Of a stretch of 64,000 nucleotides of DNA, positions 47,800 to 57,267 are shown piece after piece (the stretch's first letter is position 1; each line of letters opens with the position of its first letter). Below the pieces are notes generated by a model. It was not told the origin of the DNA, did no database searches, and saw nothing but the letters and a program-made list of their open reading frames with translations. Origin of the DNA: Minisyncoccota bacterium (lineage in GTDB: Bacteria > Patescibacteriota > Minisyncoccia > Phycocordibacterales > UBA918). A program made the position numbers and the translations under genes. The DNA is taken from positions 2,230 through 66,229 of the forward strand of contig JAIPIB010000001.1 of the NCBI GenBank assembly GCA_021734905.1. Direction: 5' to 3'.

Positions 47800-47866
47800 G
47801 CGACTATATTTTTTGAGACCGTCTTGAAATTCTATTTATAATGAATTTCAAGACGTACATACTTTA
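47800..47866 (+). repeat. REP-like element (5' box agcgactatattttttgag + perfect 12-bp hairpin gtcttgaaattc/gaatttcaagac, loop TATTTATAAT) upstream of rplJ
   Basis: seen in sequence. Confidence 0.65.
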
Positions 47867-47894
47867 TTTTTCAAAGAAGTATAAATTAAAAAGC

Positions 47895-48383
47895 ATGGCA
47901 ATTACAAAAGCAAAAAAAGAAGATATTCTTTCAAGACTTGAGAGTATCAAAAAAGATTCAGATTCAATTGTTTTCGTGAACTTTAAGGGTGTGACGGTGA
48001 AAGAAACTACGGTAATGCGACGAGCTATGCTTGAAGCTGGGGTAGGATATTTTGTCGCAAAAAAGACACTCATGAAGCGAGCGTTTGGGGAAGCTTTCGA
48101 AGGCGAAATGCCAGAACTCGATGGCGAAATTGCTGTAGCATATAGTACAGATGCAATCGCTCCTGCACAGACCGTAAAGGAATTTGCAAAGAAGTATAAA
48201 GATGCAATTGCTATTGCTGGAGGAATTTTCCAGGGAGTTTTCAAGGATAAGGATGAGATGACAGAAATCGCATCAATCCCATCACTTCAAATACTCCGCG
48301 GTATGTTCGTCAATATTATCAATTCCCCGATACAAGGACTTGTTGTTGGGCTTGATGCTATTGCAGATAAGAAGAGTGCGTAA
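47895..48383 (+). CDS. rplJ: 50S ribosomal protein L10
   Basis: MAITKAKKEDILSRLESIKKDSDSIVFVNFKGVTV.. canonical L10; followed by rplL. Confidence 0.85.
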   Translation: MAITKAKKEDILSRLESIKKDSDSIVFVNFKGVTVKETTVMRRAMLEAGVGYFVAKKTLMKRAFGEAFEGEMPELDGEIAVAYSTDAIAPAQTVKEFAKKYKDAIAIAGGIFQGVFKDKDEMTEIASIPSLQILRGMFVNIINSPIQGLVVGLDAIADKKSA

Positions 48384-48449
48384 TTAATAATCTATTGGGT
48401 GTAGTGGTTTAGAAAAGTCCTGGGCAAGAAACAGAGCAAATGAAGTGAT

Positions 48450-48493
48450 GGTCGATTTTTCTTCTTTGGGGAAGAAAAATCGACAGACTCAGA
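48450..48493. repeat. REP-like hairpin (perfect 14-bp stem gtcgatttttcttc/gaagaaaaatcgac) between rplJ and rplL
   Basis: stem sequence related to B-variant stems (cgattt..ttct). Confidence 0.55.
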
Positions 48494-48572
48494 AATTATA
48501 GTCATTTCATTCCTTAATTTCTGGCCACAGCTAAGATTTTCTAATTCGGTGCCCTCATAACAAAATCTAAAC

Positions 48573-49001
48573 ATGACAGATGAAACAACAGTTGCTGCTG
48601 CAGAAGCGGTAGTCGAAGAAGTCGTAGAGGTTCCTGCAGAATTTAAAAAGATTGTAGAAGAGATTGAAAAAATGACTGTTCTTGAGCTTCACTCACTCGT
48701 GAAGGTTCTTGAAAAGAAGTTTGGTGTATCAGCACAAGCCGTTGCGGTTGCTGGACCAGCTGCAGGAGGAGGCGATGCTGCAGAAGAGCAGAGTACATTC
48801 ACTGTAGAACTTACTGAGGCTGGAGCACAGAAGATTGCTGTGATTAAGGCTGTTAAAGAAGTTCTTGGTCTTGGTCTCAAGGAGGCAAAAGACATGGTAG
48901 ATGCAGCACCTTCAGTTGTTAAGGAAGGTCTTAAGAAGGAAGATGCAGATGCTCTCAAGGCAAAGCTTGAAGAAGCTGGAGCAAAAGTTACCTTGAAATA
49001 A
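48573..49001 (+). CDS. rplL: 50S ribosomal protein L7/L12
   Basis: canonical L12 N-terminal dimerisation, Ala/Gly hinge, C-terminal domain ..EAGAKVTLK. Confidence 0.9.
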
Positions 49002-52465: not shown

Positions 52466-53025
52466 ATTCCTTACAGGAATGTTAAGGGTGTATGGTGGAT
52501 GCCTAGGCTTCAAGAAGCGATGAAGGACGTGATATGGCTGCGATAAGCGTGGGGGAGATGCCAAATAATCGTTATATCCCACGATTTCCGAATGAGGAAA
52601 CTCACCTGCTTACGGCAGGTACCCTTGAATGAGGGAGCGTACCCAGGGAAGTGAAACATCACAGTACCTGGAGGAAAAGAAAGCAAAAAACGGGACTTTC
52701 TTTCTGACTTTTGAACAGCTTGCTGTTCTCCATTGAAGTCAGGAAGAAGGTTCTCGCGATTCCCTTAGTAGCGGCGAGCGAAAAGGGTAGAGCCCAAACC
52801 ATTCGTATTTATATGGATGGGGTTGTAGGGCAGTAGTGTCATTTAGTTGAGAAGAGTTACAAAATGTTGTCATAATAAAACGCGTTGGGAAGCGCGACCC
52901 AAGAAGGTAATAGTCCTGTATATGAAATTTCAACAACTCTTTTGCTACTGTTCCTGAGTAGTTCGGGACATGAATAGCCCGAATGAATCTGGGAGGACTA
53001 ACTCCTAAGGCTAAATATTCTTGAA

Positions 53026-53071
<46 letters not shown>

Positions 53072-53639
53072 GGAGAGGGGAGTGAAATAGATCTGAAACC
53101 ATACATCTACAAGGAGTCGAAGCCCTGCGGGGCGACGGCGTGCCTATTGAAGAATGAGCCGGCGAGTGTATCTTTATTCTTTGTCTAAGTGGTAAACCCA
53201 CGGAGGCGTAGTGAAAGCGAGCGTGAATAGCGCGAATATAGAGTAAGGATACGACCCGAAGCGGGATGAGCTTGCCATGTGCAGGGTGAAGCGAAGGTAA
53301 AACTTCGTGGAGGCCCGAACCGGTTGGCCGTTCAAAACCATCGGATGACATGTGGTAGGGAGTGAAAAGCTAATCGAATTCCGTAATAGCTGGTTCTCTC
53401 CGAAACAGCTTTAGGGTTGGCGTCGTGTGTTCCTCCTGGGGGTAGAGCTCTGGAAGGTCTAAATAGGGAGAAATCTCGTTAGACCTATCAAACTACGAAT
53501 ACCAGGTAGTCACAGCACGGCAGTTAGACTACGGGGGAGAAGCTCCGTTGGTCGAAAGGGAAACAGCCCAGATCGCCAGTTAAGGTCCCAAAATATATGC
53601 TCAGTGCAACTTGAGGAGGTGAGGATTCATAAACAGTCA

Positions 53640-53671
<32 letters not shown>

Positions 53672-54514
53672 GAAAGCGTAACAGCTCACTGATCGAGAGT
53701 CCTTGCGCCGAAGATGATCGGGGCTCAAGCATATTACCGAAACTGCGGATGTCACTTTTCTTCGGAAAAGTGGCGTGGTAGGAGAGCGTTCTGTTCTGCA
53801 ATGAAGCCAAGGTGTAAACCACGGTGGAGCGTACAGAAGTGAGAATGCCGGCACAAGTAACCGCAAGACGGGTGAGAACCCCGTCCGCCGAAATACCGAG
53901 GTTTCCTTCGCTATGCTGATCAGCGAAGGGTTAGTCGGTCCTAAGCCGATCCCGAATGGGGGAGGCGATGGATAGCAGGTTAATATTCCTGCACACTGTT
54001 GCGTTGCGATGGAGGGACGGAGGGTTGTACCCAAAGCATCTTATTGGATTGGTGCTGGAACTATGAGGAGGTGTGGTAGGCAAATCCGCCACACAATACT
54101 CCGAGTAGGGTCTGAACGTAAGGCTTCGGCCGAGCGAATGAGGGGAGCACGCTTCCTAGAAAAACTTCTAAGCATAAACGTAACGGTTCCGTACCGCAAA
54201 CCGACACAGGTGGTAGGGTCGAGAAGACCAAGGCGAACGAGTGAGGGGTCCTTAAGGAACTCGGCAAAAAAGCGGCCGTAACTTCGGGATAAGGCCTGCC
54301 TTTGCCCCTTCGGGGGTTAAAGGCCGCAGCGAAAGATTTCCTGGCAACTGTTTAACAAAAACACAGCTCCCTGCGAACACGTAAGTGGATGTATAGGGGG
54401 TGACGCCTGACCAATGCCGGAAGGTTAAATATGGGGGGTCTTATGTATTTATATGTAAGGCTGGACTATATAAGCCCCGGTCAATGTCAGCGATAACTAT
54501 AATCGTTCTAAGGT

Positions 54515-54712
54515 TCAGCAATTTTTCTTCGGAAAAATTGCTGATAGGACTGGAACGATTATGGGTTAAACATATAACGCCGAACAAGCTACCTTGCATC
54601 CAGAAATGTATGCATAGTCCAAATTGCAACCAACAAGAGACCAAATGTTGCACATCTTAACTATCGAAAGATAAAAGATGAAGATAGAGTCCTTCTGCAA
54701 TAGGAATAGAAG
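54515..54712 (+). other. 198-nt intervening sequence in 23S domain IV between AAGGU and AGCG (E. coli ~L1917-1923 region); degenerate group-I-like mini-intron?
   Basis: Exon sequence contiguous in E. coli; insert preceded by U, ends in G; contains gatgaagatagagtcc nearly identical to S-element segment of the downstream intron; starts with perfect UUCG-type hairpin cagcaattttt-cttcgg-aaaaattgctg. Confidence 0.55.
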
Positions 54713-55279
54713 AGCGCAATTCCTTGTCGGGTAAGTTCCGACGTGCACGAAAGGCGTAATGACTGGGAAACTGTCTCAAGGACCTGCTCGGTGAAAATAC
54801 AATGGGGGTGAAGATGCCCCCTACCTGCAGTTAGACGAAAAGACCCCAGGAGCTTTACTGTAGCTTCGTATTGGGGCTGTTGAATTAATGCGTAGCATAG
54901 AAGGGAGACTTTGAAGCGAGCTTTCGGGTTTCGTGGAGTCGCCAGTGAAATACCTTTCTTTAATTTGGCAGTTCCTAACCTCTTAGAAAAAATCTAAGAG
55001 AGACAGTGCGTGGCAGGCAGTTTTAGTGGGGCGCTACCCTCCTAAAAAGTAACGGAGGGGTCTCAAGGTTGGCTAGGCGCGAATGGAAACCGTGCCGATA
55101 GTGTAATGGCATAAGCCAGCTTGACTGTAAGGCGTCAGTGCCGAACAGATGCGAAAGCAGAGCATAGTGAACCGACGGTACGCTTTAGACGCGGCCGGAG
55201 ATTATCTGACAAAAGTTACCCTGGGGATAACAGGCTAGTCGTGCCCAAGCGTCCATAGCGACGGCACGGTTCGGCACCT

Positions 55280-55646
55280 TAACTTATTTATGGTATTTCA
55301 CTCAGCAATGGGTGTTTATATCAAGTTATAAATACATCGGGGTGCCTAGAGTAGCAATACTCTATAAAAATAAATTGGCTATATGCTGGAACTCCTGAGT
55401 CAAAATTAAGCATACAAGGCCCAAACAGTAATTTGAAAAAATAAGCTGTGTGGCTTGAAAACATTGTATGTTCAGGACAATCAGCAGGGAAGACTTCTAA
55501 GTTATTTAAAATAATATGAAGAACCCTCAGAGACTACACGCCAATCTCCAACTCTAAGTAGAGCTGGATGAAGATATAGTCCGATCCTCGTAGTAATACG
55601 AGTGTATAGTAAAAGTAGATAGAATTTTTACTATACAAAACGACAG
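55280..55646 (+). other. group I self-splicing intron (367 nt, no ORF) in 23S domain V at E. coli L2500-equivalent site
   Basis: Interrupts GGCACCU|CGAUGUCGGCUC; 5' exon ends in U, intron ends in G; candidate IGS gggtgt (55310-55315) pairs with exon gcaccu giving U-G at splice site; conserved Q aatcagcagg (55479-55488), R cctcagagactacacg (55525-55540), S aagatatagtcc (55571-55582). Confidence 0.85.
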
Positions 55647-55676
55647 CGATGTCGGCTCAACTTATCCTGGGGCTGG

Positions 55677-55712
<36 letters not shown>

Positions 55713-55717
55713 AAGTT

Positions 55718-55755
<38 letters not shown>

Positions 55756-56160
55756 CTCTATCTACTGCAGGCGTCGATTCTTGAAGAGATTTGTCCCTAG
55801 TACGAGAGGACCGGGATGAACTGACCTCTGGTCTATCTGCTGTCACGCCAGTGGCACCGCAGAGTAGCTATGTTGGGAATGGATAACTGCTGAAAGCATC
55901 TAAGCAGGAAGCCAACTCTAAGATTAGGAATCATTAAGTCCCCTGAGAGATGATCAGGTTGATAGGCACTAGGTGTAAGCGCAGCAATGTGTGGAGCCGA
56001 GGTGTACTAATTAGACGTAATTCCTGTAGGGAATGCTGTACATCGCCCCAAATGAACAAAATTAACGCACTGTTTTTAATTTTGGACATTTAGGAGTGAA
56101 AAGCTATACAATTTTTTGGAGTATTGTTTTATGTTTGTCGTCGTTTTAGAATATGTGATT

Positions 56161-56232
56161 GAACAAACGAGCGTAGCGACTATTGTGAAATTATGTCCCG
56201 ATTTCTTCTAACAGAGAAGTAATCGCTGGACC
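56161..56232 (+). repeat. REP-like element, B-variant, in 23S-tRNA spacer
   Basis: gagcgtagcgactattgtgaaattatgtcccgatttcttctaacagagaagtaatcgctggacc; ~66/66 identical to 56957-57030 copy. Confidence 0.7.
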
Positions 56233-56261: not shown

Positions 56262-56730
56262 ATTGACAATTGAATACTGTAATGTGGTTTTTAAACCATA
56301 AAGATCAGAGACGAATCAAAATTTCCGCTATCGGTCGCCAACCTCCCAAGTTTCAGGCATATCCGATACGTGTGTGTTTACATTTTGATTGACTTGCTCA
56401 GGTAGGCATTCCATGGCGGCTTTTGCCTCCTAACCTGCCGCCCGCGATTCTTCGCTACCTTGCGCAGTCATGCAAGTTGGGAGCTTTCTCCCCGTCTCTC
56501 CCTCGTTCTTTGTCTGTCGGTGGTGTATAGAAATTGTACGATTTTTCTGCCTTTCTTCATTCTTTTGGGATGTAGCTCAGCTAGAGGGTTATTGCAACTT
56601 CTTAGGTAGAGTGCCAATTGTTCCCGGTTGTCAACATCCGGTAAAAAGATTGGAGGTCGCTGGTTCGAATCCAGCCATCCCGACCATTGCTATTTCTTTG
56701 GAAATAGCATCACATTACAGTATTCAATAG
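56262..56730 (+). other. inverted repeat attgaatactgtaatgtg (56270-56287) / cacattacagtattcaat (56711-56728) bracketing the tRNA: candidate processing stem
   Basis: 18-bp perfect complementarity seen in sequence. Confidence 0.5.
56566..56686 (+). tRNA. aberrant over-long tRNA gene (121 nt) with canonical acceptor/T-arm/encoded CCA but ~22-nt insert in D-loop and ~23-nt insert in anticodon loop; isotype unresolved
   Basis: 5' tgggatg-ta-gctc-ag.. and 3' ..gaggtc-gctgg-ttcgaat-ccagc-catcccg-a-cca; anticodon stem ccaat/attgg encloses 30 nt instead of 7. Confidence 0.5.
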
Positions 56731-56956
56731 ATAAAATGCACCATTACAGCTTTTGTAGGGGAGATAGGAAGTAGTTTAAGGAGGAAAACATACAGGAAGT
56801 AACCCAAAGGGTAAACATAACTGCCAGATCCGTCTGTCAGAATCGCCTGCATATGACCAATTCGAGTTTGGTCCGCCTATCTTTCCCGCCTGAATCTAGA
56901 TATTCAGGTTTCCTACAAAAGCTATAATGAATTGAAAATTGAATATTTAAAGTTGA

Positions 56957-57030
56957 ATGAACAAAGGAGCGTAGCGACTATTGTGAAATTATGTCCCGAT
57001 TTCTTCTAACAGAGAAGTAATCGCTGGACG
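56957..57030 (+). repeat. REP-like element, B-variant, in tRNA-5S spacer
   Basis: near-identical to 56161-56232 copy. Confidence 0.7.

Positions 57031-57147: not shown

Positions 57148-57267
<120 letters not shown>

Follow-up and report, generated by a model that had tools for sequence, protein, structure and literature searches.

Positions 55280–55646 of the window, the 64-kb stretch of DNA that we analysed, are very probably a complete HEG-less group I intron, inserted after U2500 (E. coli numbering) of a Paceibacteria-like 23S rRNA gene and using the standard self-splicing mechanism. A first-pass annotation had claimed a group I intron with all core elements at this site (L2500), and the match to the Rfam group I model, the covariation among related introns and the numbering of the site all support it.

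Searches with Rfam at gathering thresholds identified a bacterial LSU rRNA at 52472–56030 on the plus strand and a 5S rRNA at 57155–57262. We aligned the 23S sequence of the window (52472–56030) to E. coli rrlH (NC_000913.3) using MAFFT, and found a 367-nt insertion exactly 3' of U2500; the interrupted E. coli sequence, from position 2491 onwards, is TTTGGCACCT/CGATGTCGGCTC, with the break after U2500. The last base of the 5' exon is U55279 and the last base of the insert is G55646 (omega-G), so the length, the borders, the preceding U and the terminal omega-G are all as first described. Because it lies immediately 3' of the equivalent of U2500, the insert is a member of the L2500 family. Intron_gpI (RF00028), the Rfam model that had been named as the check on this reading, matches positions 55328–55603 with a score of 92.8 bits (E = 1.6e-22 over the whole window), compared with a gathering score of 50 bits. 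The match spans the full model (1–253), and the same result was obtained when the sub-region was searched alone. The core elements Q (aatcagcagg), R (ctcagagactacacg) and S (aagatatagtcc), which had been picked out by their sequences, are found at 55479–88, 55526–40 and 55571–82, respectively. The coordinates of the intron, its exon partners and its helices are collected in Table 1.

Table 1. Features of the L2500 intron and of its flanking exons, in window coordinates.
Feature	Start	End	Strand	Evidence or remarks
Whole group I intron	55280	55646	+	367 nt, 37% G+C; RF00028 match and E. coli alignment
5' exon strand of P1, GGCACCU (E. coli 2494–2500), with splice-site U55279	55273	55279	+	99% of cells paired, 41 relatives
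P1-loop hairpin, contains gggtgt; stems 55286–90/55329–33, 55291–96/55318–23, 55299–304/55309–14; GCAA loop 55305–08	55285	55333	+	MFE and constrained folds
Internal guide ACAUCG, GGGUGCC: P10 strand 55334–39, P1 strand 55340–46	55334	55346	+	
P2 hairpin, 7 bp, GNRA loop GCAA 55354–57	55347	55364	+	5/6 counted pairs compensatory (helix 8)
P3 5' strand AUUGGC, pairs with 55540–45	55374	55379	+	100% paired, 2 pairs compensatory (helix 9)
P4 5' strand UGCUGG ('P' element), pairs with 55481–86	55384	55389	+	Invariant, 41 sequences (helix 10)
P5 (55393–98/55472–77) and P5abc-like extension (55410–17/55464–71, 55418–21/55452–55, 55425–29/55445–49, 55431–34/55439–42)	55393	55477	+	Compensatory changes, helices 11–14
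P4 3' strand UCAGCA (Q)	55481	55486	+	Rfam alignment, constrained fold
P6 55487–89/55524–26, P6a 55494–97/55518–21, P6b 55501–06/55510–15	55487	55526	+	Helices 15–17
P7 5' strand G-(A bulge)-GACUA, in R	55530	55536	+	99.6% paired, essentially invariant (helix 18)
P3 3' strand GCCAAU	55540	55545	+	Rfam alignment, constrained fold
P8 hairpin	55547	55568	+	7/8 pairs compensatory (helix 19)
J8/7 (UGAAGAUA) and P7 3' strand UAGUCC (S)	55569	55582	+	Invariant
P9 hairpin, GNRA loop GUAA	55587	55602	+	5/6 pairs compensatory (helix 20)
P9.1, 14-bp peripheral hairpin, variable among relatives	55603	55637	+	49% paired (helix 21)
3' terminus CGACAG, including omega-G55646	55641	55646	+	Conserved in ≥90% of relatives
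3' exon strand of P10, CGAUGU (E. coli 2501–2506)	55647	55652	+	98.4% paired (helix 6)

The first-pass annotation had also described the 23S sequence as otherwise colinear with E. coli, and here it was mistaken, because there are further insertions of 67, 54 and 198 nt. The first two are in domain I of 23S, at 52687–52753 (67 nt, after E. coli position 227) and 52819–52872 (54 nt, after position 292). The 54-nt insertion looks like a lineage-specific expansion segment, since it is 80–94% conserved in many related CPR 23S genes.

The secondary structure of the intron was derived from the Rfam alignment and a constrained fold, and its base pairs were counted on an alignment of 41 sequences (A2). 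For the counting, we turned to metagenomes, which supplied 36 more members of the subtype to which the window intron belongs. Scanning them with a core motif specific to this subtype, ATCAGCAGGRAAGRCTTCTA, yielded 48 more L2500 introns with both exon borders; these introns, the window intron and those of four GTDB loci comprise 42 distinct sequences, 41 of which were aligned. Another family alignment (A1) mixed two P4–P6 sequence types and was misaligned in its middle part, and was left out of the counts. Among the 41 introns, 87.5% of the cells form standard pairs, as against 36–41% when the partners are slid by 1–3 columns. Both sides have changed in 71 of the 123 pairs, and the observed covariation score was reached by none of 500 shuffles. 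Compensatory changes are seen in P2, P3, P5, the three P5a–c helices, P6, P6b, P8 and P9. Helices P1, P10, P4 and P7 show no variation, as expected of elements that are constrained by the invariant exons or by the demands of catalysis, and covariation neither supports nor contradicts them. Conservation is poor in the P1-loop hairpin and in P9.1 (49–72% paired in the family alignment), and the predicted structures of these two elements come mainly from energy minimisation and two close relatives; P9.1, with just 49% of its cells paired, is regarded as lineage-specific. The intron as a whole has a fold z-score of -6.4. An unconstrained minimum-free-energy (MFE) fold recovers P1, P2, P5abc, P9 and P9.1 correctly, but we rejected it as a model of the core because it pairs J3/4 with J8/7 in place of P3 and P7. 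Since it misses these two helices, the core model depends on the Rfam alignment and on homology.

The hallmarks of group I introns can be read from this structure: P1 with a U·G pair, P10 and omega-G; a pseudoknotted P3–P8/P7 domain with a bulged A, a G–C pair and a conserved J8/7; and a P4–P5–P6 scaffold with A-rich joining segments, J4/5 being AAC and J5/4 CAA. The guanosine-binding pair is probably G55532–C55581, which adjoins the bulged A55531. The P5abc-like arm is capped by a GAAA tetraloop (55435–38) that is invariant across the family, as is a motif in P6a (CUAAG at 55497–501 and UAUG at 55515–18). In the Tetrahymena LSU intron, which is of subgroup IC1, the GAAA loop of the P5abc arm faces a receptor of the CCUAAG/UAUGG type in P6a. 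The P6a motif of the window intron resembles this 11-nt GAAA receptor, and by analogy with Tetrahymena P5b–P6a the loop and the motif may form a tetraloop–receptor pair. There is no P7.1 or P7.2 between the 3' strand of P3 and P8, and R and S read UCAGAGACUACA and AAGAUAUAGUCC; both features are compatible with a provisional IB-like assignment. The insert does not have the character of an intervening sequence (IVS) removed by RNase III, because it is at site 2500 and contains a full ribozyme core, and its ends pair with the exons and not, as in an IVS, with each other.

With these elements, the intron would be spliced and its exons ligated in the following way. The guide at 55334–46 would form P1 with the terminal 7 nt of the 5' exon, placing U55279·G55340 at the cleavage site, and an external guanosine held in the P7 site at G55532–C55581 would attack after U55279. 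Omega-G55646 would then replace the external guanosine in P7, with the initial 6 nt of the 3' exon kept in place by the guide as P10, and ligation would produce GGCACCU-CGAUGU, restoring the 2494–2506 strand of the peptidyl-transferase region. The P3–P8/P7 core and P4–P6 would be braced by the P5abc-like arm, its GAAA loop facing the receptor-like motif of P6a, and further by the GNRA loops on P2 and P9, by P9.1 and by the lineage-specific hairpin in the P1 loop; these tertiary contacts of the periphery are putative. We strongly expect the intron to be removed and the exons to be ligated, because this region would be disrupted by a nick, or by 367 retained nucleotides, beside A2503–U2506, which we take to be residues of the peptidyl-transferase centre adjoining the insertion site (U2500/C2501). 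We also observed that CGACA in the 3' terminus of the intron is complementary to positions +5 to +9 of the 3' exon (UGUCG; window 55641–55655), and the MFE fold predicts a CGACA/UGUCG hairpin across the 3' splice site. The hairpin and P10 overlap, and the former may be an alternative way of holding the 3' splice site in place.

It is possible, though we think it unlikely, that self-splicing is inefficient in vivo and that the intron needs a protein cofactor encoded elsewhere, whether a maturase or an RNA chaperone of the host. A requirement for proteins is common among organellar group I introns, and is exemplified by the CYT-18 and Mrs1 systems (PMC6257700, PMC2813881). The window intron is AT-rich (37% G+C), and the LAGLIDADG_2 proteins encoded by its relatives at the same site could in principle act as maturases. 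However, a stabilising periphery of its own, such as the P5abc-like arm, the GAAA loop with its receptor-like partner and the GNRA loops, usually makes proteins unnecessary for an intron, and tblastn found no LAGLIDADG gene anywhere in the 64 kb of the window.

We give very little credence to the idea that the insert is a dead relic, either kept in the mature 23S rRNA or cut out by RNases without ligation to leave a fragmented 23S. All its catalytic elements are intact, the 41 relatives bear the marks of purifying selection and compensatory evolution, and neither an insert nor a chain break is likely to be tolerated beside A2503–U2506. Both fates have precedents: a 23S group I intron that remains unspliced has been reported in Simkania, as cited in PMC11270868, and there are bacteria in which intervening sequences are excised and the 23S rRNA is left in fragments (PMC11270868). 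The known RNase III intervening sequences, however, are located in other helices (23IS2/23IS4, PMC11270868).

The guide of the intron is not the one that was first proposed. The first-pass annotation had named gggtgt (55310–15); this hexamer is present, but the true guide is the 13-mer at 55334–46 (ACAUCGGGGUGCC), which sits immediately 5' of P2. It is an exact complement of the ligated exons GGCACCU-CGAUGU except for one A-to-G change, and this change creates the U55279·G55340 wobble. One contiguous guide thus provides both a 7-bp P1 (55273–79/55340–46) and a 6-bp P10 (55334–39/55647–52). The 13-mer occurs only once in the 64-kb window, where 0.05 occurrences are expected by chance even with one mismatch. 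It is kept in 40 of the 41 relatives, as is the U·G pair (likewise 40 of 41), and it coincides with the 3' strand of P1 in the Rfam alignment (GGGGUGCC). There is hardly any room left for GGGUGU to form P1 by pairing with GCACCU, even though all six of its bases match the exon by complementarity, with a U·G falling at the splice site. The hexamer is part of the 3' strand of the apical stem in the P1-loop hairpin (CACUCA-GCAA-UGGGUG), and it is not conserved: the closest relatives of the intron (L157 and L153, 86% identical to it) read GAAUGU, with compensatory changes in the opposite strand of this local hairpin. Moreover, members of the family whose guide is only 5–7 nt from the splice site have no such segment, and a guide at 55310–15 would make the adjacent P10 pairing impossible.

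Across the family, the distance from the 5' splice site to the start of the guide ranges from 5 to 141 nt, which makes the P1 loop a variable insertion point; the 54 nt in the P1 loop of the window intron are one lineage-specific filling. Separately, insertions of 85–140 nt are seen in the P1 loop in L014, L209, L127/L150 and L112, and after P2 in L130/L165. Their GAGCGAG/CGAGCGAAC-like motifs and internal palindromes suggest that they are small mobile or repeat elements residing in peripheral loops of introns.

To describe the wider family, we scanned one genome per species for inserts at L2500 that end in G before C2501 (a G followed directly by CGATGTCGGCTC..C..ATCCTGGGG), and found them in at least 120 species-representative genomes. 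About half of the loci listed are from Patescibacteria/CPR. The others carry labels that include Actinomycetota, Chloroflexota, Planctomycetota, Omnitrophota and Acidobacteriota, and there are also Gammaproteobacteria among them, including a Coxiella endosymbiont. Both exon borders are present in 97 of the listed loci, with insert lengths of 226–963 nt, and two length classes can be distinguished among the listed loci (approximately 250–600 nt and 800–960 nt). By blastn, the nearest introns among the listed loci are those of a Paceibacteria MAG (L014, 83% identity), a Nomurabacteria MAG (L098, 80%) and a Campbellbacteria MAG (L037, 76%). The nearest 23S exons among these loci are also those of the Paceibacteria MAG (L014, 89%), so the connection to CPR lineages that had been drawn at the outset stands. 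With the metagenome introns included, the best matches to the window intron are L157 and L153, which are 86% identical to it over the full length. It is 74–86% identical to more than 30 L2500 introns, and the most distant members are about 68% identical. The guide and the 3' terminus CGACAG are common to the L2500 relatives, and the introns of L153, L209 and L014 at the same site score 90–94 bits against RF00028. It is scarcely conceivable that an assembly or chimera artefact joined the intron to the 23S gene, even though the window probably comes from a metagenome assembly, because dozens of independent assemblies have this intron family at exactly the same position and the guide matches the flanking exons.

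The scans also revealed some variety in the makeup of these introns. An actinobacterial/chloroflexal subtype at L2500 starts with CAAUUUGGGGUG and ends in ACGUG. The window intron resembles, in P1–P3 and P8–P9, L2500 introns that have a different P4–P6 type. Its own core motif from the 3' strand of P4 to P6, ATCAGCAGGRAAGRCTTCTA, is also present in ORF-bearing introns located about 650–750 nt further upstream in 23S (L124, L137, L139, L156, L179, L213, L218, L199, L210 and others), whose upstream flanks we read by eye as 23S domain IV. The same P4–P6 type is therefore common to introns at different sites.

The description of the intron as ORF-less holds. The longest ORF overlapping it on either strand is 47 aa, and tblastn searches with the LAGLIDADG_2 proteins of same-site introns gave only chance matches in the intron, with no remnant of an endonuclease. 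It does not encode the endonuclease ORF that characterises a homing intron. About 30 of the at least 120 L2500 inserts listed do encode LAGLIDADG_2 proteins, and the introns of the long class code for proteins of about 200 aa with matches to LAGLIDADG_2 (PF03161) at E-values of 1e-36 to 1e-39. In a set of introns of about 800–960 nt (L034, L007, L017, L003, L015 and others), we observed that the N-terminus of the endonuclease, MDNTVGSL, is encoded by a part of the ribozyme core, AUGGACAAUACCGUGGGAAG, that spans the 3' strand of P5, J5/4, the 3' strand of P4, and P6. The ORF begins inside the core and runs on through L6 to P7, and therefore the protein and the RNA core overlap.

Inheritance of the intron within its clade appears to be mostly vertical, because intron identity tracks exon identity: the exons of L153 are 96% identical to those of the window and its intron 86%, and the corresponding values for L014 are 88–91% and 83%. 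The intron is plausibly immobile; an ORF-less copy could, however, be mobilised in trans by the endonuclease of a HEG-bearing allele in the same community. The window intron appears to be the ORF-less form of a site-specific family in which other members carry LAGLIDADG_2 endonucleases.

The third of the additional 23S insertions is at 54515–54712 (198 nt), after E. coli U1931 and about 570 nt upstream of the L2500 intron, and it is the more unusual object of the two. It is conserved and group I-like, with a P1/P10 guide (GCUACCUU), P2, P3, P7, P8, J8/7, P9.0 and omega-G. It has no P4–P6; CAACAA alone lies between the 5' strand of P3 and P7. Its score against RF00028 is 20.2 bits (E = 0.005 in a 351-nt search), and because it and its relatives score below the gathering threshold they are missed by Rfam-based annotation. 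Homologs of 178–238 nt are present at L1931 in ten further loci, among them L153, L209, L007, L138/L190, L017, L034, L096 and L175. In nine sequences, 87.6% of the cells in its helices (P1, P10, P2, P3, P7, P8 and P9.0) are paired, as against about 40% when slid, with compensatory changes in P2, P3 (5 of 6 pairs), P8 and P9.0. The guide GCUACCUU is a perfect Watson–Crick complement of AAGGU/AGC, and therefore the splice-site pair is U–A in all nine sequences and not U·G; larger L1931 introns in other loci have the guide GCUGCCU(U), which gives U·G. A 453-nt relative in L057, which also has a U·G guide, contains a normal P4–P5–P6 and an ORF remnant exactly at the position of CAACAA. An 11-nt segment of the insert (GGAACGAUUAU, 54552–54562) is complementary to positions -16 to -6 of the 5' exon (54499–54509), which are the 3' strand of helix 69. 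This segment covaries with the host exon in L017, L034, L096 and L175 (95% paired, with 3 positions doubly changed), and the predicted pairing, combined with P1, would amount to an H-type pseudoknot in competition with helix 69. One might speculate that the L2500 intron has been retained partly because it supports removal of the L1931 insert, by providing P4–P6/P5abc in trans or by coupled folding, but we rate this as highly improbable; to our knowledge, trans complementation by P4–P6 is confined to engineered Tetrahymena constructs.

The surroundings of the 23S gene have some unusual features of their own. Between 23S and 5S there is a tRNA-like gene (56566–56683; 37.7 bits against the Rfam tRNA model). 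Its acceptor arm, T arm and CCA end are normal, but its D loop and its anticodon loop are each enlarged by about 23 nt, which in the anticodon loop form a hairpin. ARAGORN did not find a tRNA anywhere in the 64-kb window. At the equivalent position, L153 and L014 have an ordinary tRNA of 72–78 nt. The 23S–5S spacer is unusually long (1.1 kb), and within it the tRNA-like gene is bracketed by two 76-nt direct repeats (56156–56231 and 56954–57029) that are 97% identical and 798 nt apart; single related copies of the repeat are present in the spacers of L209, L122/L193/L214 and L203. There is no 16S rRNA gene in the 52 kb upstream of 23S (window 1–64000), and the 23S–5S unit is therefore not linked to 16S there. 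ORFs resembling rplJ and rplL are located at 47841–49001.

Introns of this kind are well documented in CPR bacteria. Tsurumaki et al. (2024, J Bacteriol) found insertions in 82% of CPR 23S genes; by the same Rfam model as we used, 433 of 968 CPR 23S insertions (45%) are group I introns, and 222 are ORF-less (PMC11270868). These introns are concentrated near the peptidyl-transferase centre in domain V, and at a single site the ORF-containing and ORF-less forms are near-identical outside the ORF (PMC11270868). The window intron shares with them the host group, the gene, the domain V cluster and the match to the Rfam model. The endonucleases differ: LAGLIDADG_1 predominates at positions 1917, 1931, 1952, 2593, 2604 and 2657 (PMC11270868), whereas the relatives at L2500 described here encode LAGLIDADG_2. 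Sites 23IS9–11 of that study are placed in its figures only, and may include 2500. A literature search on the site by name (L2500, position 2500) found nothing.

Site 2500 is also that of the I-ChuI intron of Chlamydomonas humicola. This intron is in rrnL and encodes I-ChuI, as cited in PMC2997540, and the same paper (Table 4) lists a chloroplast intron of Floydiella terrestris, Ft.rrl.6, at rrl site 2500, of subgroup IB, with a length of 381 bp and no ORF. Compared by description, Ft.rrl.6 and the window intron have an identical site, a similar size, no ORF and no P7.1/P7.2. In contrast to the green-algal chloroplast introns, the host here is bacterial, and the 54-nt P1-loop hairpin is specific to the lineage of the window. 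Closer at hand, the LAGLIDADG_2 introns at L2500 in other bacterial MAGs (L034, L017, L112, L010 and others) share the site and the guide (ACAUCGGGGUG) with the window intron and are homologous to it in P1–P3 and from J8/7 to P9. They differ in their length (about 800–960 nt), in their ORF of about 200 aa extending from the 3' strands of P5 and P4 through L6, and in having the other P4–P6 type (ACGGUG/ACCGUG). In some of them, additional hairpins lie between P7 and the 3' strand of P3. The Tetrahymena LSU intron is similar to the window intron in its P1/P10 guide, omega-G, P7 site with a bulged A, and P5abc-type arm, but its site (L1925), host and subgroup are different, and we claim no homology between them beyond the universal core.

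The window intron is a real but ordinary feature, because related introns occupy this site in many uncultured bacteria. ORF-less group I introns in CPR 23S genes and chloroplast introns at site 2500 have already been published. It adds to the documented abundance of such introns in CPR a single carefully annotated case, in which P1/P10 is corrected and the secondary structure is supported by covariation, and its exact boundaries permit correct annotation of 23S, and correct phylogeny, for this lineage. The alignment of the family identifies the P1 loop as a hot spot for insertions. Inserts at L2500 are present in at least 120 species-level genomes and extend far outside CPR, and ORF-less and LAGLIDADG_2-encoding forms coexist at this site, as the homing-cycle model predicts.
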